IMG/VR virus record: IMGVR_UViG_3300031920_000373
Coordinates: 758 to 64,757 of that record
Length of the DNA stretch: 64,000 nucleotides
Source: a virus
Reading direction: 5' to 3' (one strand)
The notes below the pieces were generated by a model, which had not been told where the DNA came from, did no database searches, and saw only the letters and a program-made list of their open reading frames with translations. Below are positions 3,658 to 44,974 of the stretch, in pieces. Position 1 is the first letter of the stretch; every line of letters starts with the position of its first letter. The translations under genes were made by a program, and so were the position numbers.

Positions 3658-4239
3658 TTACGCCTTTGTATGGCTCATTATCATCTGGTAAATAGAGTGA
3701 TCTTCCATTTCAAGTGCATCCTCTATCATAAGCTCGGTAACAAAATCAGATAATCCTTTACCTGTATCGTGATCCCAATCATTAAGGCTCCTGTATACAA
3801 AACGTGTTACCATTTCCTTTATGGTATCCTCTTTGACAGGCAGTCCTTCTTCAATCAAGCTCACTACCTGTTCGGGATCTGATTTAAGAGGTGTTCTGTA
3901 TAGTATCCATATAGCAATGATATTCTTCTTTATGGTCAAAGATGTTACAATGCCTCTTGGTAGACGGACTGATATTTTGATATGTTGGGAAGTGGGCAAG
4001 GACTTAACAAGAGTGCTTTGAACAGTGGAGCCGGTGGAGCCCGTGGAGCCCTGAAGGTCTGGTGGTGCGGAGTCTTGATTGTATTGCTCCTTGAAACCCT
4101 TTTTATAGTCCGACTGTTCTGGGACAGGTGAAGTGGCAATGGTCTTAACAATGGTCTTAACAACCTTCTTACGGTTGTTTGCACGGCTGACTGGGTTTTG
4201 GAATTCAAACTTGTTTTGGAGATTGTTGATACTGTTCAT
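3658..4239 (-). CDS. Hypothetical protein, first gene of the leftward operon
   Basis: ORF with AAGGAAGG SD, just downstream of a leftward promoter; contains low-complexity GSTGSTGST. Confidence 0.7.
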   Translation of the reverse strand: MNSINNLQNKFEFQNPVSRANNRKKVVKTIVKTIATSPVPEQSDYKKGFKEQYNQDSAPPDLQGSTGSTGSTVQSTLVKSLPTSQHIKISVRLPRGIVTSLTIKKNIIAIWILYRTPLKSDPEQVVSLIEEGLPVKEDTIKEMVTRFVYRSLNDWDHDTGKGLSDFVTELMIEDALEMEDHSIYQMIMSHTKA

Positions 4240-4840: not shown

Positions 4841-5338
4841 AGTGAACGCCGTTCGGTAGGTGATAGTGTTGTTATTACGATATAAACAAGGATCTACGAT
4901 ATGAATGGCATACCATCCTGTGTGGGCGTCTATGCAAGTACCGTGCTAAGGCGTATATTTCCTGCCCTTGATATAAGACGCTTTATGGGTGATATAAGAG
5001 CGGTATATGAGGGACAGGACCACTCACCCAGGCAAAGTCTGAATCTCAATATTCGGTTTTTATCCTATGATATCGGTACTTTATATAGGCAGGTTTAGTA
5101 TAGGCTTATATATCGGTAGGTTACAGTGATTTAGGCAAAGTCAAGGAAATAATGCGGTTTCTATCATATGGCTGAATATTTGTGGCCGGACTTATATCAA
5201 GGCAGACTTATATTGTTAGGCAGGCATAACTATAAGGCGAGGACGGATGTGGCAGATATCGAGGCACGGACTGAGGCAGATATGATCCGGCATATTTGAG
5301 TCAATCAAACGACAATAAAACGCCGTACAAGACAAATC

Positions 5339-5422
5339 CTTGCTGTTTTTACGCTGTTTTAGTGTATTGCGTATATAATCGCCGGCATTTGATATAAACA
5401 GCGTTTAAATAGCACTAAAAAC
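5339..5422. repeat. Phased T-tract/A-tract element (member of dispersed family)
   Basis: ttgctgtttttacgctgtttt...tagcactaaaaacg; shares motifs with 8923 and 32686 elements. Confidence 0.5.
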
Positions 5423-6150
5423 GATTATTAATGAATATGGCGCGGATATTGCTTAAAATAACAATGTTATCGGTAAAAAAACAATGTTAATTAGGCAAAA
5501 CAGCGTTATTTGCACTCCAATAGCGGTATTTCAACATTTATTTTGCCCTGTAAATAGCCGTATTCATTACATTATTTGAGAAAACGCCGCAAATCGCCGC
5601 ATATGTATGCTAATATTATGTATTATTATGTATTATTATGTATAAAGCAATTGACAGTGCCTATTCATGGCACTCTTGACTGATAATTTATTTTCATTTA
5701 TCTTTCAGGGTGGGCACTAATTGCCTATCATGGGCACTTAATTGCCTATAACGGAGTTTTACTGCTATCCGGTTCTATTATAGATTGAAATCGAACAACA
5801 AACGGGACGGCGCATCTGGCGCAACAGGCAACAAAGTAAACGCCGACGCAGGCAACAACATGCACCGCATATGAGGCAGCGGGTTATGATCTTTGAAAAT
5901 TTGTAAAATCGGACGTAAAGGCGGGACGCCATTTGGGATGCTCGGAAGAGTTCTTAAAAATCAAGGAAAGTGGTTGATCCAGGAAAACAAGCCAGTCCGT
6001 AGGTGCTATATAGAATCGAAGGAAGGTAGGCGCCTTGAAGGAACATAAAAAAAGATTAATTACAAAAACGTAGGTTTTAAGGAAAAGGTTAAAATAGGAC
6101 TTAAAGCGTAGGTTTTTGTGCTTAATAACTGATAAAAAAGGAGATTTAAA

Positions 6151-6237
6151 ATGAATTTATGCAAATTGATAGGATACGGACTTGTTTGGGGAACGGCAGT
6201 AAACGTGGCAATTATTTTGATTCTGGCTGGGATGTAA
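6151..6237 (+). CDS. Small hydrophobic peptide (28 aa, MNLCKLIGYGLVWGTAVNVAIILILAGM)
   Basis: Strong AAGGAG SD; single TM-like stretch. Confidence 0.4.
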   Translation: MNLCKLIGYGLVWGTAVNVAIILILAGM

Positions 6238-6499
6238 TACAAGAAATTCAGGAGAACATGAGAAAAAATGGCTATTTTTAGCCCAATCCATGTCGACCAA
6301 AGGCAGAGTAAGCGATCCAGCAGAGTATAGCCTAATAGGAAATATTGTAGGATAGGCTTATCTTATATAATCTTATAGCTTTTTTTTAATGAAGGTATAA
6401 TGAAGGTAGGTTGTATATACAAGGTAGGATGGTAAAGATAATGAGGATAAGGCGGTCTTGTTCTTAATAGTCATATAATCGAATGAAAAGGAGTAAATC

Positions 6500-7009
6500 A
6501 TGGGAAATCTTAAGGATGTTGTAACTGTTGATTGTAAGTCATTTGGCAAAAAAAGTGCTAATTTTAAAAAATGTTTGACCTGTGAGGATGAGGTGAAGAA
6601 GGCCTGCCAGGATGCTTTTATTGCATTAAGTGCCGAAAAAACTGAAGTAAAAGGAACTGAAGTAAAAGAAATTACCAATAATCAGGAGAATCAAAAGAAT
6701 CAGGAGATTAAAACAATGAAAAACTTGAAAAATTCCACAAATTCAACAACTGCCGCAACAAATGCAAAAATTGGAAAAGCCCAGATGGTTAAGGATATGA
6801 TCTTTAGCCTCGCAAGAAAAGCCGAATATACTCGGAAAGAATTGGGACAGGCTATTCAAGCTTCCTTTCCTGAGTATAAAAATTCTACTTTGTCCACTTA
6901 TATCTCTGATTCGTTTAATGTGAAATATGCAGGAGTTACAGGATGTGGCGCCCATCGGATGTTGTCATATGTCCAGACTGGCAAGAAAAAAATCATAGTA
7001 GTAAGATAA
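6500..7009 (+). CDS. Early protein with C-terminal winged-helix-like domain; paralog of 35761..36330
   Basis: AAGGAG SD; YTRKELGQAIQASFPEYKNSTLSTYISDSFNVKY aligns with HTKKEIVDEVAPKFPDVTVSTISTFVQDCMNVKY. Confidence 0.75.
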   Translation: MGNLKDVVTVDCKSFGKKSANFKKCLTCEDEVKKACQDAFIALSAEKTEVKGTEVKEITNNQENQKNQEIKTMKNLKNSTNSTTAATNAKIGKAQMVKDMIFSLARKAEYTRKELGQAIQASFPEYKNSTLSTYISDSFNVKYAGVTGCGAHRMLSYVQTGKKKIIVVR

Positions 7010-32773: not shown

Positions 32774-33001
32774 TTGAAAGGATTAAAAACAATGATCATA
32801 CGAATGAATCAAACAGAAGTAAAAATGGCGGAAACTTTTTTAGAAAAAGTAAAAACGGGTGAAGTGACTCACGGAGTTGTTTGCTACAGAGATAAAAAAG
32901 GAACAGTTTCTTATCAATTGTTTAGTCCTGAACATGTGACATATATAATAGGCATGATGGAAAGATGCAAGCATAAAATCATGAATGATTTCGGAGAATA
33001 A
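32774..33001 (+). CDS. Hypothetical protein
   Basis: ORF track. Confidence 0.55.
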   Translation: MKGLKTMIIRMNQTEVKMAETFLEKVKTGEVTHGVVCYRDKKGTVSYQLFSPEHVTYIIGMMERCKHKIMNDFGE

Positions 33002-33185
33002 ATTTATGAAGGCATTTAAAAAAGATGAAAATTTTGGGGAAGCAGGTGAATGGCAAATTTGTGCTAAAGATAGAAGGGAAGTTGAATTAGCCTTTCAAGA
33101 ATATTCTGATTTCTATATACAGGATGAAGCAATTGATGATATGATAGTGGTTCTTGAAAAATTAGGATATGTGAAAATTGAATAA
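32985..33185 (+). CDS. Hypothetical acidic protein
   Basis: ORF track. Confidence 0.55.
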   Translation: MISENKFMKAFKKDENFGEAGEWQICAKDRREVELAFQEYSDFYIQDEAIDDMIVVLEKLGYVKIE

Positions 33186-33296
33186 ACAAAAGGAATTTTT
33201 TAATACACCGACAATCGCAAGTAGCATTTACCAGGAGGAAGAGGATCAGGCAAGAAGGCTCACCCTTTGTTCATGAAACCATTAAAGGAGACTAAA

Positions 33297-33791
33297 ATGA
33301 AGTATTTTCAAATTGAAGATCATTGGGATGAATTACTTCCCATTTATACTTGTAATCAGGCAACTGAAATTTGGTATAATGAAATGGAAGCCTATGGTAG
33401 AGGGAAAGATGAAGATTATGGATTAACAAACTGCCGTACAAACCCATTAACACCCGAATTAACACCTATGGATTATGATAGCTGTGATTGGAGACTTAAT
33501 ATAAACGAGGATGGTAGTTGTGGTCCTGTCATAGTAAGACCCGAATTTTGGAAATATGTTTGCCATAGTGCTTGTCATTGGCTGGTAAATTTAAGTTTAT
33601 TTGTAGCACAACAATATACCCCTGAGAAACAATGGAGAATTGTTTCGGGTAAAGAACATTCTACTGTTTGGGATGGAGAAGACACTTTATGGGATGCTAA
33701 TTTTTTAGCTTTAGGTATTGATGCTGATGAAGCATGGAAGTTAGCTAATGATGTGCATTATCAACCAAATGAGTACATGCAACACCTTTAA
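33297..33791 (+). CDS. Hypothetical phage protein
   Basis: YVCHSACHW and GKEHSTVWDG segments; AAGGAG SD. Confidence 0.65.
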   Translation: MKYFQIEDHWDELLPIYTCNQATEIWYNEMEAYGRGKDEDYGLTNCRTNPLTPELTPMDYDSCDWRLNINEDGSCGPVIVRPEFWKYVCHSACHWLVNLSLFVAQQYTPEKQWRIVSGKEHSTVWDGEDTLWDANFLALGIDADEAWKLANDVHYQPNEYMQHL

Positions 33792-33825
33792 GAAGTTTTT
33801 AAAATCGGTTAAAAGGAGGTAAATT

Positions 33826-34938
33826 ATGAAAGCATCCATAACTAATGTAATAAAATTTGAGACCGCTCACCAGTTGACTGACTCTTACTCTGAGGAAGAT
33901 AATACCTATACTTGCCCTGTGTGTAATAAGGAAGGAATAAAAAGCATATTTTCTCATTGCAGTAATACAGGTGATAGTGTTCATTTAAACTGGATACAAA
34001 AATTAAACGATGAAATAAATGAAGAAATTGACAATCTTTTTCCTGATTATATGCAAATGGAAATAAATTTGAAATTGCAGGAGATTTTACCCACCCTGTC
34101 TCCTAATATTATTGCAAATAAGATCAGAAGCAGAGCAAAGGAAACAGGTATAAATACCAGAAAAGTATTAGGGAAATGTAGAACTGGGTTAAATAATCCT
34201 GTACATACGAAAGGAACAAAGGATAAAATATCTAAATCAGTCAAGAAGAAGTGGGAAGAAGGTTCTTATTCAGATAGAATAAATGGAATGCAAGGGAAAT
34301 TAGGGCCTTTATCAGGAAGATACGATCCATCAATTCATACCATAGAACATAAAGGTCTATATTATTTTAATTCTTTTTTATCTGAATTTCAAGATATTTC
34401 AGTGTGTTCAAGATGTAAGGGTGTTGAAAATAAAATTAATGTACACCACATTGACGAGGACCATAAAAACTTTCTACCGTCAAATCTTGAGCCCTTGTGT
34501 GTGCTCTGTCATATGTCCAATCACTACAAACAAGTTAAGAAGCCATTCGTTACTATAGGAAAAGAATTTACATTTGCGGCGGCACATCAATTACCAAACC
34601 ACCAAGGGATGTGTCAATATCTCCATGGACATGAATGGAAGCTTAGAATTGAGTTGAAAAAGAGGGTAGATTTTAAAACAGGAATGGTAATGGACTTTTC
34701 TGATTTGAAAAAAATAGTGAAGGAGCATGTAATATCTATACTTGATCATAACACCTTAAATGAGATAATATATAATCCGACAGCCGAGAATATCCTAATA
34801 TGGATCTGGGAAAAACTAATGTTTGAAGGCCTGCTCAAGGGAATTTATAAAATTCATTTATGGGAATCATCCGATAGTGTAGCAGTACTTGACCAGAAAG
34901 GGATGTTATCCGTTTTTACTGAAAAAGGAGTAAAATAA
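33826..34938 (+). CDS. queD: QueD (6-carboxy-tetrahydropterin synthase) fused C-terminal to an HNH endonuclease
   Basis: FTFAAAHQLPNHQGMCQYLHGHEW, VMDFSDLK, LDHNTLN, NPTAEN, LWES; HNH CSRC...VHHIDEDHKNFLPSNLEPLCVLCH. Confidence 0.9.
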   Translation: MKASITNVIKFETAHQLTDSYSEEDNTYTCPVCNKEGIKSIFSHCSNTGDSVHLNWIQKLNDEINEEIDNLFPDYMQMEINLKLQEILPTLSPNIIANKIRSRAKETGINTRKVLGKCRTGLNNPVHTKGTKDKISKSVKKKWEEGSYSDRINGMQGKLGPLSGRYDPSIHTIEHKGLYYFNSFLSEFQDISVCSRCKGVENKINVHHIDEDHKNFLPSNLEPLCVLCHMSNHYKQVKKPFVTIGKEFTFAAAHQLPNHQGMCQYLHGHEWKLRIELKKRVDFKTGMVMDFSDLKKIVKEHVISILDHNTLNEIIYNPTAENILIWIWEKLMFEGLLKGIYKIHLWESSDSVAVLDQKGMLSVFTEKGVK

Positions 34939-35597
34939 TGTTTGTAGCTGATATATTTGAATCATTCCACGGAGAAGTGAATGGACATCACCAAGGACGA
35001 ATTGTCACATTCATACGCCTCTCTGGATGTAATCTTAGATGTTCCTATTGTGATACCAAAGAAACATGGGATAAACTTTATGGGGAAAATCTTAGCCCTC
35101 TTCTAATCCTTAACAGAGTTAAAGAATTAGGACATAAACACGTTTGTATTACAGGTGGCGAGCCTTTACTGGATAAGGCGGCAGTACTGGATTTAATGCA
35201 TATATTATCAGAGGAAGGGTATCGCATATCCGTTGAAACAAATGGCACTATCAGTATCACTCCTTTTGTTAGATTTGTGGATAGCTTTATTATTGATTGG
35301 AAAATACCCCCCAGACCGTTTAAAGGAAAGAATCTATTCCTTGAATCTAATTTGGTAAATTTAAGGAATACAGATATTATCAAGTTTGTGGTTATGGATG
35401 AAGATGATGTTATACTGGGAATAAAACTAACGGAAATAATTATCAGAGACAAATATAAATCAAATACTCTGGTTGCTTTTTCTCCTATTATTTCAGAAGA
35501 TTTTTTACCAAAGCACTTAGCAAACGCATTGCTTTACCATAAAGCTAAAAACTGTATTTTATCTGTCCAGATTCATAAACTTATTGATTTCAAATAA
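34938..35597 (+). CDS. queE: QueE radical SAM 7-carboxy-7-deazaguanine synthase
   Basis: IFESFHGE, FIRLSGCNLRCSYCDT, ITGGEPLL, VETNGT, SVQIHKLI. Confidence 0.93.
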   Translation: MFVADIFESFHGEVNGHHQGRIVTFIRLSGCNLRCSYCDTKETWDKLYGENLSPLLILNRVKELGHKHVCITGGEPLLDKAAVLDLMHILSEEGYRISVETNGTISITPFVRFVDSFIIDWKIPPRPFKGKNLFLESNLVNLRNTDIIKFVVMDEDDVILGIKLTEIIIRDKYKSNTLVAFSPIISEDFLPKHLANALLYHKAKNCILSVQIHKLIDFK

Positions 35598-35636
35598 TGG
35601 TCCTGTGCAACATGCCGATATTACACGGATTTAATC

Positions 35637-35690
35637 TTAATGATTTTTTATTAAAAAGTGCTTGACTTCTCATTCATTTTTCATTAAGAT
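35637..35690 (+). promoter_or_regulatory. Class II promoter with upstream palindrome
   Basis: TTAATGA-TTTT-TTATTAA, 7 bp, TTGACT-N17-TAAGAT. Confidence 0.75.
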
Positions 35691-35760
35691 GTATTTAAAT
35701 TGTTCAAGAGTGAAAAAGCAGTTCAAGAGTAAATTTAATTAATTTTTAAGGAGAAAGAAA

Positions 35761-36330
35761 ATGGCAAAACTGACAGACGCCCAGAAAGCAGAAATGGCAA
35801 AATTAAAAGCGATTCCCAATGATTTGATGAAATTATCCATTGCATCCCTCAATACCTTCTTGACCAGCAAGGAAAAAGACAAAATGCCCAAAGCAAAATC
35901 CAAGGGCGAAGCCGTAAAACTTTTTACCGATGCAATTGCAGGCCTGCTTGAAGCTGACCTGGGTGAAGAAATTCCGGAAGATGTTGCAACTTTTTATAAC
36001 GACCATGTTGTGGGTGACGATGCAGAGGCTGGTGATACAGGTGCTGATGATGGAAAAGCCGCCCCCAAGCCCAAAGCTGACAAGACCAAAACAACCAAAC
36101 CCCGGAAAACCAAAGCGGAAATACAAGCCCGGTATGATGCAATCTCTGCCATGATCGTCACAGGTAAACATACCAAAAAGGAAATCGTGGATGAAGTTGC
36201 TCCCAAGTTTCCGGATGTCACGGTCAGCACCATCTCCACATTTGTGCAGGACTGTATGAATGTTAAATACAACAAATTGCCCAAGTTGACGGTTAAGGCC
36301 GAAGACGGAAAACTCTCCTTCGCCAAATAG
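35761..36330 (+). CDS. Lys/Ala-rich protein with C-terminal winged-helix-like domain; paralog of 6500..7009
   Basis: AAGGAG SD; shared T.KE...FP....ST.ST...D..NVKY pattern. Confidence 0.75.
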   Translation: MAKLTDAQKAEMAKLKAIPNDLMKLSIASLNTFLTSKEKDKMPKAKSKGEAVKLFTDAIAGLLEADLGEEIPEDVATFYNDHVVGDDAEAGDTGADDGKAAPKPKADKTKTTKPRKTKAEIQARYDAISAMIVTGKHTKKEIVDEVAPKFPDVTVSTISTFVQDCMNVKYNKLPKLTVKAEDGKLSFAK

Positions 36331-36363
36331 TCCTGCCCCTATGACATTTAATGAGTAACCCCG

Positions 36364-36410
36364 AAAAGGCGGAGCGTCCCTCAATTCCAACAGCTCCGCC
36401 TTTTTTATTT
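36364..36410 (+). terminator. Intrinsic (bidirectional-type) terminator just upstream of queC
   Basis: AAAAGGCGGAGC-N17-GCTCCGCC-TTTTTTATTT. Confidence 0.75.
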
Positions 36411-36425
36411 CAAAAGGAAAACGAT

Positions 36426-37100
36426 ATGAATGGAGCCGTTGTATTGTTAAGTGGAGGACAAGATTCTACCACGTCATTATTTTGGGCTTTGTCCAAATAT
36501 GATGACGTTTTTGCCTTGATTCTTGACTATGGACAGAGGCACAGGATAGAAATAGAATCAGCAAAGAAAATTGCTGAATTGGCTGGTGTCGAGTATATGG
36601 TAATTGACCTTAACTTCTTTAAAGAAATAGGCAACTCTGCCTTGATTGGGGATGTATCAGAAGTAAATGAACCGCATTCCTGTGATTCAAATCTGCCCGC
36701 ATCATTTGTCCCTGGAAGAAATCTGATTTTTATCACTATCGCCTCTATGGTAGCATATAAGAGAGGACTGAACGCTGTTGTTACTGGTGTTTGCCAAACA
36801 GATTATTCGGGATATCCTGATTGCAGGAACGCCACAATGAGGGCATTAAATGAGGCAATCGTGAAGGGCTTGGATAAAGCTATCTTGATCAGTACACCTT
36901 TGATGTGGTTGACAAAAGAGGAAACTGTCAGACTGGCTCAGTCATTTGAAGGCTGTATGGAAGCTCTGGCATATTCTCATACTTGTTATAATGGAGAGTA
37001 TCCTCCCTGTATGCATTGTCCCTCATGCTGTTTAAGGACAAGAGGATTCAAAGAAGCAGGTGTAAGGGATCCACTGATTGTGAGGTACTATGATAAGTAG
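36426..37100 (+). CDS. queC: QueC 7-cyano-7-deazaguanine (preQ0) synthase
   Basis: LSGGQDSTT, DYGQRH, FVPGRN, SGYPDCR, TPLMWLTK, CYNG...CMHCPSC; start refined. Confidence 0.95.
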   Translation: MNGAVVLLSGGQDSTTSLFWALSKYDDVFALILDYGQRHRIEIESAKKIAELAGVEYMVIDLNFFKEIGNSALIGDVSEVNEPHSCDSNLPASFVPGRNLIFITIASMVAYKRGLNAVVTGVCQTDYSGYPDCRNATMRALNEAIVKGLDKAILISTPLMWLTKEETVRLAQSFEGCMEALAYSHTCYNGEYPPCMHCPSCCLRTRGFKEAGVRDPLIVRYYDK

Positions 37101-37701
37101 AAAATATCCAGGTGCCATTCTTGCCAATGCATCAAAGCATGACCGAATCAAAGCATTGGTACATGATCTTTTGGTGGAAATCAATGAAAATCCAAATAGA
37201 ACGGGATTGAAAGATACCCCTGAACGTGTTGCCAAAATGTACTCTGAAATATTCAGAGGATACGATGATTCACAGAAACCGAACCTTACTGTTTTTCCAA
37301 ATGACGATGATGGGCTTTCCTTCAAAGGTATGATAATTGATCAAGGATACTTTTTCAGTCATTGTGAGCATCATATGGTTCCCTTCTTTGGTCATTATTA
37401 CTTCGGATATATTCCCGATAAAACACTGATTGGCGCCTCAAAGATTGGTAGATTGATCAATTTCCATTCAGCCAAATTGCAGATAGCGGAGCGCCTGTGT
37501 CGTGTTGTGATAGATGACATTGAGGAGGCTGTGAAACCTCAGGGTTGTATTCTCATAATGACTGCCCGCCATTTGTGTAAAGAAATGAGAGGAGTCAAGA
37601 TGTTTAACAGCCCGTTTGAGGCGGACGATGCACGTGGTTGCTTCCTTGAAAATCATGCAGGATGTAAAGATGAATTTATTAGCAGAATAGGAATTAAATA
37701 A
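37090..37701 (+). CDS. folE: GTP cyclohydrolase I
   Basis: GLKDTPERVAKMY, SHCEHHMVPF, GASKIGR, LQIAERL, HLCKEMRGV. Confidence 0.95.
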   Translation: MISRKYPGAILANASKHDRIKALVHDLLVEINENPNRTGLKDTPERVAKMYSEIFRGYDDSQKPNLTVFPNDDDGLSFKGMIIDQGYFFSHCEHHMVPFFGHYYFGYIPDKTLIGASKIGRLINFHSAKLQIAERLCRVVIDDIEEAVKPQGCILIMTARHLCKEMRGVKMFNSPFEADDARGCFLENHAGCKDEFISRIGIK

Positions 37702-38166
37702 ATGAAACATAAACATCTTGGATCAAACAAAACGGACTATCAGTTCTCCGAGCCCTCGGCTGATCTTCTGGACACATTCAAAAACAAACACCCTAATATC
37801 TATCTGGTACCATTTGTTATGCCCCGGGATGAGTTCACAAGTCTTTGTCCCGTCACGAATCAGCCTGACCAGGCAAAGATTGAAATAATCTATGTGCCTT
37901 TCGATGATATGGTTGAAAGTAAGTCCTTGAAACTGTATCTTTTCTCCTTTAGAAATAACGGAGAGTTTCATGAGGATGTTATTAACAGAATAGCCAAGGA
38001 TCTGTATTCAGCAATGAAGCCCTTGTATATTCGTGTTTATGGTGACTTTGCTCCACGTGGGGGTATTGCAATCAAACCCATGGTTGAATTGTGGAATTCC
38101 AATGACCCTCATGATACAAAGCTGATTGAAAATTATGTGAAAATGTGGGACAGGAAAAGGAATTAA
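37702..38166 (+). CDS. queF: NADPH-dependent preQ0 reductase (short, type I)
   Basis: [13 protein letters not shown], QueF motif [19 protein letters not shown]. Confidence 0.92.
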
Positions 38167-38167
38167 T

Positions 38168-40081
38168 ATGAAAACTCCAGGCAGAGAAGATGTTTCTCTA
38201 ATGCTTGATTCCGGTGCTTTCTCTGCCTGGATGAAACAAGAGGAGATATCAGTCGAGGACTACGGTAAGTTCCTTCAGCAACATGGAAATGATTTTGATC
38301 TGATTGTTAACCTTGATGTAATTCCGGGCAAATTCGGGCAGAAGGAAATACCCGAAGCTGAAATGATCAAGTCCATTGAACAAGGCTGGAGAAATTATTA
38401 CAGACTAATTGAAATGGGAGTCCCTAAGAATAAGCTCCTTCATGTATTTCACCAAGGAGAGCCCTTTCACTATCTTGAAAAAATGGTAAAGGAGATGGAA
38501 TATATAGGAATCTCTCCTGCAAATGATAGAACCACAAAAGAAAAGAAAAAGTGGCTGGACGAGTGCATGAAATATATTGTGGATAGTAAGGGAAAAGCCC
38601 AAATCAAATTCCACGGGTTCGGTATGACTTCTTTGCACTTGATCTGGCGTTATCCTTGGTTCTGTATGACAGAAGAGGATCATGAGGTATTAACAAAAAC
38701 TGGATGGAAATTTAGAGAAGATTTATCCATAGGGGAGGAGGTATTAACATTCGATAAAGGAGCATCTAAGTGGGAACGTATTTTAGATATTCCTACATTT
38801 CCAGTAAAAGATATTGATATCAATGTAATGGAAAATAGAAACTTTTGTGCCAAAGTTACAGATAATCATAATTGGATTACTTGTCCTCAATATAATAGAG
38901 GAAATAATTGGAAGTGGAAAACAACACACACACTGAACTCCAATGATTGTATACCTAGAATAGGAAAATACACTTTCCCTGAAACTAAAATATATATGGA
39001 CAGTTTCATTGAATTATTGGCTTGGTTTTGGACTGATGGAACAATCAACAAAAGGGAAAAATATAATCAGGATAGTATTTCTATTTATCAATCTGAAAGT
39101 GCTAATTCCGATAAATGTAAGATGATCCAGGATTTGTTAAATTACAGTGGAGAACCGCATTGTAAAAGTGTGTCAAAAGAGGACAATTTAGCAAATTTTG
39201 AAATGTATGGAGACATTACTAAGGCTATATTAGAATTTGCTCCATTTAAAAAACTACCTTTAGATTTTATATTTGATCTTACTAAGGAACAGTTACAGAA
39301 ATTTGTAGATATTTGTGTCCTGGCTGATGGCACAGACACAAAACTGGTAAGACGTGATTCATTTAATATTACAGTTTCAAGACAGGTGAAAAAAGACAAT
39401 CTTGAGGTTCTCCGTATAGCTTGTTTATTGTTGGGTATACCTACTTCTATTTCTTATGGAAACCAAGGGTATAAGACTTTACAATCATCCTCAGTTGATT
39501 ATGTGTATAATCATTCACTTAAAAAACACAAGGAAAAATATACAGGAAATATATGGTGTTTACAGGTGCCAAGTAAAGCTTTTTTTACAAGATGTGACAA
39601 TAAGATATATGTCACAGGAAACTCAATTGACAGTACTACATGGGTTTTGGTTGGTGCTATGGGGGGTGTTATGATGCCTAAAATTAAGTATGGCAGATAC
39701 ACTTACAGGCAATCACCAATCATACTTCCCATCACCACAAAGAACGACATAAAAAAACCTTTCCATTATCAAAATCTATCAGAAATAGAACAAAGCAAGG
39801 TGCAACGATACTTTAATGATCGTGGCTTTGATGTCAAAACCCTGGAAACGGAAGGAATGGAGAGAGACAGAGCCAACATGAGGTTCTTTCTTGATCTTGA
39901 ACAAACCTTGACTGATACAAAGGTGTACTTTGCTGGTAACTTTCCCATGCTTCATAAGATGGAGAGAGAGTTCAAGACAATGGATTTGGCTTTAAAAATA
40001 ACTGATAAGTGGAGAAGGCTGGGCTCTTATTATCACCAGAACTATCTCCTTAAATTACTTGATCTAAAACGGAGGAAATAA
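38168..40081 (+). CDS. dpdA: DpdA-like DNA 7-deazaguanine transglycosylase (TGT fold), intein-containing
   Basis: LMLDSGAFSAW, NLDVIPG, HVFHQGE, FHGFG, RYPWF|intein|SIDSTTW; located in the que cluster. Confidence 0.85.
   Translation: MKTPGREDVSLMLDSGAFSAWMKQEEISVEDYGKFLQQHGNDFDLIVNLDVIPGKFGQKEIPEAEMIKSIEQGWRNYYRLIEMGVPKNKLLHVFHQGEPFHYLEKMVKEMEYIGISPANDRTTKEKKKWLDECMKYIVDSKGKAQIKFHGFGMTSLHLIWRYPWFCMTEEDHEVLTKTGWKFREDLSIGEEVLTFDKGASKWERILDIPTFPVKDIDINVMENRNFCAKVTDNHNWITCPQYNRGNNWKWKTTHTLNSNDCIPRIGKYTFPETKIYMDSFIELLAWFWTDGTINKREKYNQDSISIYQSESANSDKCKMIQDLLNYSGEPHCKSVSKEDNLANFEMYGDITKAILEFAPFKKLPLDFIFDLTKEQLQKFVDICVLADGTDTKLVRRDSFNITVSRQVKKDNLEVLRIACLLLGIPTSISYGNQGYKTLQSSSVDYVYNHSLKKHKEKYTGNIWCLQVPSKAFFTRCDNKIYVTGNSIDSTTWVLVGAMGGVMMPKIKYGRYTYRQSPIILPITTKNDIKKPFHYQNLSEIEQSKVQRYFNDRGFDVKTLETEGMERDRANMRFFLDLEQTLTDTKVYFAGNFPMLHKMEREFKTMDLALKITDKWRRLGSYYHQNYLLKLLDLKRRK
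38663..39622 (+). mobile_element. Intein with LAGLIDADG endonuclease in DpdA (320 aa)
   Basis: CMTEEDHEVLTKTGW; VTDNHNW; LLAWFWTDG and ICVLADG; IWCLQVPSKAFFTRCDNKIYVTGN followed by +1 Ser. Confidence 0.9.
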
Positions 40082-41296: not shown

Positions 41297-44200
41297 ATGG
41301 GATTTTTCACTAAATCCCAGTTATCTAAGCGGTCCGAGGTCAAGGTTGATGTCAATGACTTGGAATCGGATTGCTTGGCTTGTGGGTTATTCAAAGACAC
41401 AATCCATCCAAAGATGGAATACTCAGGACAAGGTCAAAAGAAGATTCTCATTATAGGTGAATTTTCAAGTGACGAAGATGACCAATATGGTCAACATTTC
41501 TATGGAGAACGAGGCGATCCATTAAGACAGCAATTAAGGTTCAATAATGTCAATATGAACAAGGATTGCTGGAAAGTTAACGCTGTTCGATGCAATCCTG
41601 ATGGACTTAATTTACCCAGTCCTGGCCAGGTTCAAAACTGCTTCCCGTATATCAAAAAAATGATCAAACAGTTAAAACCTAAATTGATACTTCTTCTGGG
41701 TGATTTGGCTATTTCTTCATTGTACGGAAAGGATTTTTCAAACAGAAGCATACACAGATGGAGAAAGTATGTTATACCCGATCAAGAGTTCAGTTGTAAT
41801 GTTATTCCTCTATATCATCCCTATCATCTTTTCCGTCAATCCAAGAAAAAGAAGAAGAAAGACAAAAACCTCGAAAGTGTATTCAATCGGGATCTAAAAT
41901 TTGCTCTCAGACAGTTGGAACGCCCGGTTTTAACGACAAAGAACTATGAAAGCAATGTCACACTGTTAACAGACTTCAACCGCGTTAAAAAGCTGTTAAA
42001 TCGAATCCTCAAGCGTAAATCAAAAATCTATTTTGATTATGAGTCCACAGGACTAAAGCCTTTCAGAAAAGGCCATAAGATTGTGACCATTGGTGTTGCT
42101 GTATCTGCCTCAAAAGCGTTTGCGTTTCCTTATCAGTGGAAAAGTTTCTGGACTCCCTCTGAATTAAAGGTTATAAAGAAACTCTGGAAAAAGATTCTCA
42201 GGGATGATGAAATCCTAAAGATGGCGCACAATTGCTTTTCAGGTGATACAAAATATATAACTAAAGAAGGATTGAAGTCCTTTATTGATACAGAGAACAC
42301 TACCCAAACAGTGTGGACAAAGGAAGGATGGAAGGATGCTAAAGTTAAATGTTATGGAAAAGATCATCTTTCTAAAATAGTAGTAGGCCCTGAACTTAGA
42401 AGTAGATCCAAGATTAAAAGAACTATTCACAGCACTGAAAATCACCGTTGGATTGTAAAAAGAAAATTCAATCATTGTTACCCTAATCCCTCTACCTTTA
42501 AAACTATAGAGGTTACCACAGACCAATTGAAATTAAGGGATAATATAATTTCGGAAATGCCCGAATTCACAATTGATCAAAATACAGAGGCTTTTAGACA
42601 TGGATTAATCCTTGCGGATGGAGGTCGTTCCAGTAAACATTCCCTTCATTTTCAAATCAGACTATGTGGTAAAAAAGAAAAGTATAAAGACATTTTTCCT
42701 AAATATACGTACCCCCTTTCTGCTAATGGTGATCCGGTTGTGAATTACTATAAAGCCTCTTGTGATATGAAGAAAGTTCCTGAGAATCCTACGGCAGAGT
42801 ATGTAGCAAACTTTATAGCAGGATGGGATGCTGGTGACGGCACAGATTCAGCAACTGGAAGATCAAGAGTCATAACTACCTTTAATAAAGAACACGCTAC
42901 ATGGTTAAAGGACAATGCAGAACTTGGTGGATGGAAATGTACTGGATTTTCAGAACATATTAATTCGAAAGACTTTGATGGGAATTATATAGACCCGCAC
43001 CCTTACTGGATGATAATATTAACAAAGGAGAAAGTAAACTGGACAGTAAAAGAAATAAAACACAAGGATAGATACGAGAAAGTGTACTGTGTTTCTTTAC
43101 CAAAAGAGGAATTTACTCTCCAATATGGTATTTACACAAGGAATTGCAAATTTGAGCAAGTGTGGTCAAAGGTTATGTTCAATGTAATGCCTAAGATTCA
43201 CTTTGATACTATGATGGCAGAACATATCTTGGACAATAGATCAGCCTCAACAGGTTTGAAATTTCAGACGTTCATAAGGTTCGGTGTTAAGCCCTATGAT
43301 AAAGATATTGCTCCCTTCCTAAAAGCAAAGAATGGAGAATTTAATACCATAGAAAAAGCACCATTCAAAGAGTTATTAACATACAATGGACTTGACTGCA
43401 TTTATGGATGGATGGTATACGATAGACAGATCCTTGAAATAACCAAAAGACGGGACGTAAAGGATGCAATGAAAAGCGTTCTCGGTGAGGTTGATGCTCC
43501 CGAAAAAAGCCTACTTGGTGCTTACAATTTCTTCATGCGTGGTAACGAACAGATGGCTATTATCCAGCTTAACGGGATCAATATGGATTCCATTTATTAT
43601 CAAAAAGCTGAAAAGAATCTGGAAAAGAAAGTCAAGGAGTTAAAGCACGGATTGGAGAATGGTCGTGAAGCGGAAATGTTTCATAAAATGTTCGGACGAC
43701 CAATCAGGATCACATCCAATCAAGATCTCGGAAAACTATTCTATGAAGTTCTGGGAAAAGATCCCGTCTATACTGCTAAAGGGGGGTATAAGACAGATAA
43801 AATGACTCTGGAGAGTTTGAATCTACCTTATGTAAAAAACCTCCTTAAAATGAAAAAGTACGAGAAAGCCAAGGGAACTTATCTTGGTCAGTTTGCAAGA
43901 GAGATATTTAGGACAAAGATGTATCCATTCTGGGATCTTAATATTCCTGTCAGTTATAGGAGTTCATCATCAAAACCAAACTTTCAGAATATTCCTAAAC
44001 GTGATGCAGAGATAAAGGCAATCATTAGAATGGGAATTGTTCCGAAAAAGGGATGTGTGTTAAGTGAAATTGATTTTTCAGGTGCGGAGGTTATAACTTC
44101 CGCCACTTACCACAAGGATCCAACATTTATTGCCTACTTGACAGAAAAAGATGCATCAGGTGAGTTGATAAATGATATGCATAGAGATAATGCAACTGAC

Positions 44201-44974
44201 CTTTTGATGTTACCTCCTGATATGCTTGAGAATCCTAAGTATTCAAGGGACCAGAAAAAGTTAATTAAAAAGATTCGATTCTTTGCCAAGAACAATTGGA
44301 CTTTTGCTCAGTTCTACGGTGATTGGTTTGGTTCGTGTGCTCCTATGTTCTGGGAGAATGTTATTGAGGTGGACTTAGAACTTCCTAATGGCATGACTTG
44401 CCGAGAATGGCTTGAAGAAAAAGGCATCTATGAACTCGGAGAAGTAAAAGATGGAACTCCCACAGAGGGAAGCTTCATGGAGCATTGTGCCCATGTCCAA
44501 GAAAAGATGTGGAATGAACGATTTCCTGTATATACTCAGTGGAAGAAGGATATAGTTGAGAAATATAGAGAACATGGTTTTATTCCCAATCATTTCGGTT
44601 TCAGATTCACAGGATATATGTCCGATAATCAGTGTACAAACTATCCCATCCAGTCAGCAAGTTTCCATCTGTTGGTTCATACTCTGATTGAGGTACAGAA
44701 GTTCATTGATAAAAATAACCTGAAAACAAAGATAGTTGGGCAAATTCATGATAGTATTATCAGCAATGTTCCTGAAAATGAGATCAAATTCTACCATGCA
44801 GGTGTTAACAAGATTGTAAAAGGCCTGATGAATGAATTTAAGTGGTTGATAATTCCAATGGAAATCGAAGCTGAAATAACCAAGTTAAGAGAAGATGGAG
44901 GAAACTTTTCTGACCTTAGAGAAGGTGACCCTGATAATATGGATTATGAAACAATCTGGAAGGAGGCAGCATGA
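41297..44974 (+). CDS. polA: Family A DNA polymerase with N-terminal uracil-DNA-glycosylase family 4-like domain, 3'-5' exonuclease and intein
   Basis: CLAC...IIGE...NAVRC...YHP (UDG4-like); YFDYESTGL, HN|CKFE, YNGLDC (exo I-III); PNFQNIP, EIDFSGAEV, AKNNWTFAQFYG, NYPIQS, QIHDS. Confidence 0.93.
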   Translation: MGFFTKSQLSKRSEVKVDVNDLESDCLACGLFKDTIHPKMEYSGQGQKKILIIGEFSSDEDDQYGQHFYGERGDPLRQQLRFNNVNMNKDCWKVNAVRCNPDGLNLPSPGQVQNCFPYIKKMIKQLKPKLILLLGDLAISSLYGKDFSNRSIHRWRKYVIPDQEFSCNVIPLYHPYHLFRQSKKKKKKDKNLESVFNRDLKFALRQLERPVLTTKNYESNVTLLTDFNRVKKLLNRILKRKSKIYFDYESTGLKPFRKGHKIVTIGVAVSASKAFAFPYQWKSFWTPSELKVIKKLWKKILRDDEILKMAHNCFSGDTKYITKEGLKSFIDTENTTQTVWTKEGWKDAKVKCYGKDHLSKIVVGPELRSRSKIKRTIHSTENHRWIVKRKFNHCYPNPSTFKTIEVTTDQLKLRDNIISEMPEFTIDQNTEAFRHGLILADGGRSSKHSLHFQIRLCGKKEKYKDIFPKYTYPLSANGDPVVNYYKASCDMKKVPENPTAEYVANFIAGWDAGDGTDSATGRSRVITTFNKEHATWLKDNAELGGWKCTGFSEHINSKDFDGNYIDPHPYWMIILTKEKVNWTVKEIKHKDRYEKVYCVSLPKEEFTLQYGIYTRNCKFEQVWSKVMFNVMPKIHFDTMMAEHILDNRSASTGLKFQTFIRFGVKPYDKDIAPFLKAKNGEFNTIEKAPFKELLTYNGLDCIYGWMVYDRQILEITKRRDVKDAMKSVLGEVDAPEKSLLGAYNFFMRGNEQMAIIQLNGINMDSIYYQKAEKNLEKKVKELKHGLENGREAEMFHKMFGRPIRITSNQDLGKLFYEVLGKDPVYTAKGGYKTDKMTLESLNLPYVKNLLKMKKYEKAKGTYLGQFAREIFRTKMYPFWDLNIPVSYRSSSSKPNFQNIPKRDAEIKAIIRMGIVPKKGCVLSEIDFSGAEVITSATYHKDPTFIAYLTEKDASGELINDMHRDNATDLLMLPPDMLENPKYSRDQKKLIKKIRFFAKNNWTFAQFYGDWFGSCAPMFWENVIEVDLELPNGMTCREWLEEKGIYELGEVKDGTPTEGSFMEHCAHVQEKMWNERFPVYTQWKKDIVEKYREHGFIPNHFGFRFTGYMSDNQCTNYPIQSASFHLLVHTLIEVQKFIDKNNLKTKIVGQIHDSIISNVPENEIKFYHAGVNKIVKGLMNEFKWLIIPMEIEAEITKLREDGGNFSDLREGDPDNMDYETIWKEAA
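42233..43144 (+). mobile_element. Intein with LAGLIDADG endonuclease in the polymerase Exo II motif (304 aa)
   Basis: CFSGDTKYIT; STENHRW; FRHGLILADG and IAGWDAGDG; KVYCVSLPKEEFTLQYGIYTRN followed by +1 Cys. Confidence 0.9.

Follow-up and report, generated by a model that had tools for sequence, protein, structure and literature searches.

The open reading frame (ORF) described here occupies positions 33826..34938, on the plus strand, of a 64,000-nucleotide stretch of viral DNA, hereafter the window (positions 758 to 64,757 of the IMG/VR record IMGVR_UViG_3300031920_000373). It is one unbroken frame of 370 amino acids (aa), stop-free to its end, and it codes for a single three-part protein: a short N-terminal stub, a module of the homing-endonuclease type, and QueD. 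A strong Shine-Dalgarno (SD) sequence on the same strand, AAAGGAGG (33812-33819), stands 6 nt 5′ of the ATG. All parts of the protein are likewise encoded on the plus strand. The stub (aa 1-24, 33826..33897) carries the first strand, the first zinc-ligand His and the loop motif SYSEE of a QueD N-terminus. It is followed by a linker (aa 25-29, 33898..33912) that marks a former junction, its DNA aligning to an SD/ATG spacer in the related locus L011. Next come a CPVC ... H ... H zinc finger (33913..33993), a helical module (aa 57-120, 33994..34185), a NUMOD3-like segment followed by a RINGM motif (34186..34305), and an HNH nuclease motif with two CxxC pairs (aa 190-235, 34393..34530). The ORF ends with a complete QueD (6-carboxytetrahydropterin synthase) domain of the HGHEW type (34543..34935), recognized by the Pfam family PTPS, by structure and by its residues. 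An AlphaFold2 (AF2) model of the fusion protein, built on the family alignment, has an overall predicted local distance difference test score (pLDDT) of 91.8. A sequence-only reading of this DNA had given the order as a QueD-like first strand, an HNH and a full QueD; the frame, Pfam and hidden Markov model (HMM) comparisons agree on this.

The QueD part is matched by Pfam PTPS (PF01242) over aa 244-356 with an E value of 1.5e-29 (102.8 bits, the curated cut-off being 22.4, with positions 2-119 of the 121-position profile covered). In an alignment of 90 family sequences, H254, C263, H267, H269, D307 and H308 are invariant. By their roles in E. coli QueD, we take these to be the three zinc-ligand histidines (H254/H267/H269), the catalytic Cys before HGH (C263) and the Asp-His pair (D307/H308). 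AF2 models this part as a T-fold with a pLDDT of 96-98, and it superposes on the structure of E. coli QueD (4ntk; Foldseek template modelling score 0.90 and root-mean-square deviation 1.6 Å over 121 columns to 4ntk_C). Residues 240-370 are predicted to form a complete and catalytically intact QueD. The fusion gene is the single PF01242 match on the 101-kb viral contig. Its stop overlaps by 1 nt the ATG of a QueE-like radical S-adenosylmethionine gene (34938..35597, +), and three further preQ1 pathway genes lie downstream on the same strand: queC (36351-37100), folE (37090-37701) and queF (37702-38166). As the sole QueD on a contig with a full FolE/QueE/QueC/QueF cluster, the fusion gene must supply the QueD activity for a preQ1-type 7-deazaguanine pathway. 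The C-terminal 130 aa resemble stand-alone QueD/PTPS proteins (PF01242, 4ntk) in fold, zinc triad, catalytic Cys, Asp-His pair and the accompanying queE-queC-folE-queF cluster; unlike them, the protein bears a 240-aa N-terminal nuclease and DNA-binding extension.

Pfam finds only weak HNH_3 and zinc-finger matches in the N-terminal part. The HNH classes tested were those of the His-Me finger endonucleases (PF01844 and PF13392). PHROGs returns HNH families at aa ~190-240 with E of about 1e-3, and 34 of the 55 N-terminal modules of the family match PF01844 at E <= 0.01 (best 7.5e-6). Among the 90 sequences, C194, C197, H208, N220 and C225 are invariant and H207, D210, N215, C228, H229 and H233 are at least 90% conserved. 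The motif HH..D...N....N...H and the two CxxC zinc pairs are present on a beta-beta-alpha element, modelled by AF2 as strands 204-208 and 221-225 and helix 226-231. To judge from these residues the HNH looks intact. Upstream of it, N124 and W143 are invariant and G121, P125 and R151-M155 at least 90% conserved; the pattern G..NP......K.S.S...W, which we take to be NUMOD3-like, is common to free-standing HNH proteins of 160-290 aa. The stretch aa 115-240 as a whole matches free-standing HNH proteins of roughly 85-290 aa (E 1e-4 to 1e-9), most of which have the HNH near the C-terminus. In the zinc finger, C30 and C33 are invariant and H44 and H53 at least 90% conserved. The helices at aa 57-120 form a three-helix bundle resembling winged-helix/helix-turn-helix (HTH) domains in the AF2 model, with pLDDT above 90. 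Their structural matches are weak (Z scores of 5-6.7) and fall on small helical DNA-binding domains of the winged-helix/HTH type, e.g. those of MecI and DpnI; on the model, this module probably binds DNA. A PDB sequence search gave no match.

The stub was scored with custom QueD HMMs, HMMER filters off. Residues 2-19 align to positions 3-20 of an HMM made from 107 stand-alone QueDs with 10.0 bits, in register from the initiator Met. This score was reached by none of 1000 shuffles of the stub (maximum 6.1), so the N-terminal similarity is not due to chance; with the same HMM, the homologous stubs of relatives obtain 11-18 bits. The sequence-only reading had taken the stub and the second copy for one strand present twice, the second copy being a recoded replacement supplied by the invading element. 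The two copies do differ at the DNA level, as it said (45% identity over 69 nt), and their amino-acid identity is 26%. The stub, however, scores 15.1 bits against the HMM of a family of stand-alone QueDs of 144-149 aa, 7-8 bits against other QueD types and 6.7 bits against the QueD domain of the fused family itself; stubs of relatives reach up to 28 bits against the 144-149-aa family. In this small family (P0320-P0327, P0333) the N-termini resemble the stubs as far as the loop motif ending at the catalytic Cys. The loop of the stub reads SYSEE, that of the 144-149-aa family SYSKAC, and the stub breaks just before the catalytic Cys position. With 15.1 against 6.7 bits, and identities of 26% in amino acids and 45% in DNA, the stub does not duplicate the first strand of its own gene in recoded form, and the recoded replacement strand has to be given up in favour of a stub from another QueD subfamily. 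By these comparisons the stub stems from the 5′ end of another queD, a resident one of the stand-alone 144-149-aa type. The more general claim, that an element of the homing-endonuclease type landed in the 5′ end of a queD and left the first ~24 codons, is supported. An SD stands in the same way before the stubs of L009, L011 and L018; that of the window was taken over from the resident queD that was displaced.

The same data bear on the idea that an intein or a group I/II intron has been inserted, or else that the N-terminal similarity is fortuitous and the ORF an artefact of annotation or assembly. The neighbouring genes of this phage group are rich in inteins, which would make an intein here unsurprising. 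Yet Pfam detects no intein domain in the fusion protein, and the sequences flanking the insert are overlapping duplicates of the QueD N-terminus, not two halves of one protein. Rfam gave no match at E <= 1 in positions 33000-36000, group I and II introns included, and no intron match at the gathering score in L011, L013, L018, L023 or L033. The frame is continuous, the stub similarity is in register and beyond the reach of 1000 shuffles, and the same fusion is present in many independent assemblies. The second QueD copy lies inside the ORF without an SD in front of it; here the sequence-only reading (no stop, no intein motifs, no SD before the second copy) was accurate. Among sequencing runs the stretch was found in its source sample alone, with no RNA dataset holding it listed, and in the contigs of that sample neither a joint nor an alternative allele was seen at the fusion gene. 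With no Hint/intein family, no ribozyme match and an unbroken frame, we regard this explanation as effectively refuted and give it almost no credence.

A word-indexed search found the same fusion in at least 147 clusters (proteins of 203-648 aa, 38-76% identity), drawn from many independent metagenome assemblies. A family of this breadth, most of whose members have no in-frame stub, does not fit a recent and private event. When aa 1-240 were searched with HMMER against 1.84 billion representatives, 86 matches were obtained. About 33 are HNH-QueD fusions, with a zinc finger or an HTH as first module, and the rest are free-standing HNH proteins (roughly 85-290 aa, the HNH near the C-terminus in most). 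The simplest origin for the fusion is that a free-standing gene for a homing-type endonuclease became joined to the queD following it. Most homologues begin 1-8 aa before the zinc-finger CxxC, so that in most members the cassette protein opens with the zinc finger. In 50,697 deposited phage records, megablast with 10 kb around the gene found no match and tblastn found only QueD-domain matches (aa 229 onward, <=44% identity), none to the HNH module, so the HNH-QueD fusion was not found there. Further searches for related loci with QueE and the 149-aa QueD yielded nothing new, and in the literature on QueD with an HNH or a homing endonuclease we found no account of an HNH-QueD fusion.

In-frame stubs are present in 15 of the 120 homologues listed, and truncated versions in 2 more. 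On a tree of 115 proteins, all in-frame stubs fall within one 21-member clade, four members of which are apparently stub-less. This clade, to which the window belongs, is monophyletic on the QueD-body tree (1 change), and the HNH-part tree needs 3 changes. The pairwise identities of the HNH and QueD parts are moderately correlated (Spearman 0.39); together with the 3 against 1 tree changes, this means that strict co-inheritance of the two parts across the whole family is not proven. A six-frame HMM scan for stubs, covering 38 loci, detected unfused stub mini-ORFs directly upstream of the cassette in L011, L013/L026, L018/L019, L023/L024 and L033. L011 belongs to the clade of the window; there stub and cassette are in different frames, the stop of the former overlapping the ATG of the latter. 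The DNA of the window and L011 aligns through the stub and then differs by 11 nt, where L011 retains an SD and the cassette ATG. The in-frame fusion of the window is consequently one of the states of this junction, which other loci have in unfused form. L018/L019, L023/L024 and L033 belong to other clades, with other N-terminal DNA-binding modules and stubs of the canonical QueD type (17-26 bits). In at least five lineages, stubs of one or the other QueD type all break off 0-3 codons ahead of the codon for the catalytic Cys, and three to four codons ahead of the HGH zinc site. At least two types of target, the 144-149-aa and the canonical QueD, thus appear from their sequences to have been interrupted at a homologous position. 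In L033, a short QueD C-terminal remnant (3901-3951; HMM positions 128-144, 14 bits) was noted right after the fused gene, which suggests that both ends of the displaced resident queD survive there.

One pair of loci displays a filled and an empty allele. In L013, a complete HNH-QueD ORF (5001-6068) lies between direct repeats of 65 nt (4909-4973 and 6086-6150) that are identical at 64 of 65 positions; the repeat corresponds to nt 1-65 of an intact resident queD for a 149-aa protein (6086-6535) directly downstream. L039, from a sister sample, is without the 1177-nt unit and has its resident queD at 2033-2482. The two loci are identical over 2097/2097 nt on the left flank, up to nt 65 of the resident queD, and over 769/770 nt on the right flank, from the resident queD ATG. 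The lone mismatch sits in the right-hand repeat, which identifies the left copy as the native one. L013 therefore reads, in order, native 5′ relic, endonuclease-QueD ORF, and a new SD with a second 5′ segment joined to the native body. The same filled arrangement was recovered in an independent assembly (L026/L038), making an assembly artefact unlikely. A complete unit has thus been gained or lost within one population. The comparison with related queD alleles that the sequence-only reading had called for has in this way provided an insertion site and a filled/empty pair in a relative, though no such pair for the lineage of the window itself. Separately, 27 nt to the left of the cassette ATG of L013 were considered as a decayed continuation of the resident gene through the HGH codons; 159 of 2000 shuffles reach the score, and this candidate was rejected as not significant. 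The resident 149-aa QueDs of L013 (P0320) and L039 (P0321) are without the catalytic Cys that precedes HGH in P0322-P0327. From its sequence this Cys-less resident may be inactive, in which case an incoming cassette QueD would be useful to the phage.

We consider it fairly probable that HNH-QueD is a self-complementing homing-endonuclease cassette, of which the stub in the window is an in-frame insertion scar. On this model a widespread, mobile HNH-QueD cassette would land in queD just upstream of the catalytic Cys and HGH codons, leaving the resident 5′ end as a stub while its own QueD restores function. The HNH, to judge from its motifs the presumed agent of movement, would cut cassette-free queD alleles, and double-strand-break repair would copy the cassette in (homing); by analogy, the arrangement in L013 would be the expected product of one-sided or classical double-strand-break repair from a cassette-bearing donor. 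Expression would proceed from the resident ribosome-binding site and ATG, with the stub mini-ORF stop overlapping the cassette ATG in some lineages and, in the lineage of the window, a direct in-frame fusion after loss of the spacer. The cassette of the window would have entered a queD of the 144-149-aa type whose body was later deleted; that body is absent from the window, where queE directly follows the fusion gene. The stub may by now have some structural role. The earlier proposal that QueD function is kept by sequence carried on the element is supported, with the correction, seen in L013, that a whole QueD domain is carried and not one strand.

A related scheme would have a bare HNH gene enter this very queD after its first strand, bringing a recoded copy of that strand, so that the gene resident from the start would be represented by the downstream body, and the two copies would be paralogues derived from a single gene. 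Its geometry of relic, endonuclease, replacement 5′ segment and gene body does exist in L013, where the downstream resident queD shows it, and mirrors the mobile-ORF gene hybrids of fungal mitochondria (PMC3630166). In L018 and L023 the stub and the fused QueD are moreover akin in type (identities of 50% in amino acids and 53-62% in DNA), and the L033 stub has similar HMM scores against both QueD types; to these canonical-type stubs the scheme may apply, and it may describe how the fusion first arose. For the window it fares badly. The stub scores with the 144-149-aa family (15.1 bits) and not with the fused domain (6.7 bits), has SYSEE against the SYSKAC of the 144-149-aa family, and shares only 26% amino-acid identity with the second copy, while the fused QueD body is of the short HGHEW type. 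On the QueD-body tree the window clade is monophyletic, with a single change, and in L013 the repeat-flanked unit contains a complete HNH-QueD ORF. We judge a bare HNH invasion of this queD improbable and retain the self-complementing cassette.

Several observations nevertheless weigh against the cassette. The HNH_3 match of the window protein is under threshold, with 11.6 bits where 24.8 are required (E 0.22), and fold searches (Foldseek, VIA) with the whole N-terminal model returned no solved HNH or homing-endonuclease structure, the lists being filled by the helical module aa 57-120. About 16 of roughly 25 distinct loci have no detectable stub. The canonical-type stubs of L018, L023 and L033 could stem from one event, so that no more than two or three insertions can be counted as independent with confidence. 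For the lineage of the window itself, no allele free of the cassette was found. The difference between L013 and L039 could be a gain, or a loss by recombination between the repeats, which would regenerate exactly L039; homologous recombination alone, with no part played by the nuclease, could suffice for its movement. The right-hand repeat and the gene body of L013 are contiguous and the same as the empty allele across the insertion point. With this intact copy of the target, the carrier is not immune by target disruption as classical homing predicts, and the immunity that the sequence-only reading attributed to the insertion is not borne out. Finally, the stub is conserved like the functional modules and unlike a pure scar: among 13 in-frame proteins, its mean identity is 0.59, against 0.49-0.62 for the DNA-binding modules and 0.27 for the linker. 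AF2 models it confidently as a helix, not as a QueD strand, and the relic appears to have acquired a role.

The last two points would be accommodated by a domesticated bifunctional enzyme, in which the nuclease has a job tied to 7-deazaguanine modification, mobility is a matter of history and the stub is an exapted structural element. A candidate job would be to degrade or nick unmodified DNA of the host or a competitor, the phage's own modified DNA being spared. Across 90 sequences, with identities as low as 39%, the catalytic and zinc residues of the HNH are either invariant or conserved to at least 90%, unlike those of decaying selfish endonuclease genes; the fusion is the sole QueD of a complete pathway; the stub, conserved as the linker is not, is a confident helix in the model; and domestication would explain why L013 tolerates an intact target copy. 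Against this, cleavage sensitive to modification is conjectural, conserved catalytic residues are expected also of an element still moving, and scars at one codon position together with a filled/empty polymorphism point to continuing mobility. We rate domestication as rather unlikely, though a live rival of the cassette, or a complement, since the two are compatible. Less likely still is that the two halves act as a selfish pair akin to restriction-modification. The QueD half would then lead to 7-deazaguanine-protected carrier DNA, including the intact target of L013, while the HNH half would drive the cassette into co-infecting phages by cutting their queD alleles, where un- or under-modified, at the Cys/HGH codons. 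The L039 resident queD, lacking the catalytic Cys, would on this account leave its phage poorly modified and cuttable.

The self-complementing cassette has one close precedent among the systems that we compared, the mobile-ORF (mORF) gene hybrids of fungal mitochondria, described for atp6 of Allomyces macrogynus (Paquin et al. 1994, as cited) and for atp6, atp9, cox2 and nad3 of Glomus (Beaudet et al. 2013, PMC3630166). In both cases an endonuclease ORF lies inside a conserved gene and brings a foreign copy of the displaced gene end; the insert is often in phase, the native end persists as a nearby relic, and close relatives are insert-free. The orientation is the mirror image, the displaced end being 5′ in HNH-QueD and 3′ in the mORF hybrids, and the nuclease is an HNH instead of LAGLIDADG or GIY-YIG. 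Unlike the mORF hybrids, HNH-QueD joins (nearly) the entire carried enzyme to the nuclease in a single polypeptide, and it resides in a phage, in a gene of a DNA-modification pathway. The 5′ copy carried in L013 is also 98% identical to the native one, leaving the target unaltered, again unlike the mORF hybrids. So far as we have found, a gene-carrying, self-complementing cassette would be new in phages.

T4-like phages harbour free-standing homing endonucleases, Seg and Mob, among them mobE, which splits nrdA in Aeh1 (Friedrich et al. 2007; reviewed by Edgell, Gibb and Belfort 2010, PMC2988022), and experiments on the homing of T4 introns have documented one-sided repair with illegitimate junctions (Parker et al. 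1999, cited in PMC2988022). Like HNH-QueD, the Seg and Mob genes are phage HNH or GIY-YIG genes with NUMOD-type modules, in or beside conserved genes, and they spread by double-strand-break repair as is proposed here. They differ in being separate ORFs, with the host gene left intact alongside or split into two working pieces; to our knowledge, no T4-like element has been described as translationally joined to a complete substitute for its target gene, a 5′ stub of the latter remaining. I-HmuI and I-HmuII of phages SPO1 and SP82 are intron-encoded enzymes with an HNH and NUMOD-type modules that insert at conserved active-site codons, their ORF often being in frame with the upstream exon and using its translation signals. 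They are nicking enzymes that cut intron-containing DNA too, and a comparable nicking of carrier DNA would ease the immunity problem posed by L013. These systems have a ribozyme, whereas none was found for HNH-QueD, in which function would be restored by a carried protein-coding copy and not by RNA splicing.

Other features of the region and its relatives were recorded. Genes adjoining the cassette in relatives bear inteins (L004:2887-5604, L009:3804-5813, L007:1115-6004); among them are a DnaB-like helicase, whose intein is of the LAGLIDADG type, and an intein-bearing gyrase/topoisomerase fusion. Homing elements have heavily colonised this phage group. A 169-nt contig of the source sample matches positions 33231-33291 of the window and then runs into a stub-type start, MKTSVTKI; it seems to come from a co-occurring relative without the 174-aa ORF at 33267-33791. 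Between queE and queC lies a Lys/Ala-rich ORF of 189 aa (35761-36330) with no Pfam match, in the place of which L011 has an ORF with weak similarity to HC2 (histone-H1-like). The 637-aa ORF after queF (38168-40081) is blank in Pfam, and the PF01702 (TGT/DpdA) profile found no match in the phage's own genome. Farther downstream, the ORF for a family A DNA polymerase (41297-44974) bears an N-terminal domain of the uracil-DNA-glycosylase superfamily (aa 45-192).

Homing endonucleases normally spare the host gene, either by residing in a self-splicing intron or intein or by occupying an intergenic position. If the cassette model is true, HNH-QueD would represent a third route in phages, in which a full working copy of the disrupted gene is carried along, fused to the nuclease. 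It would account for the odd 'long QueD' annotations in more than 100 uncultured phage lineages, and it would provide a natural, probably sequence-specific HNH nuclease whose predicted target is the active-site codons of queD. L013 and L039 form a rare filled/empty allele pair for the study of homing, of immunity and of a possible link between nuclease sensitivity and DNA modification. A dedicated selfish element would then be reshuffling the 7-deazaguanine DNA-modification pathway between phages.

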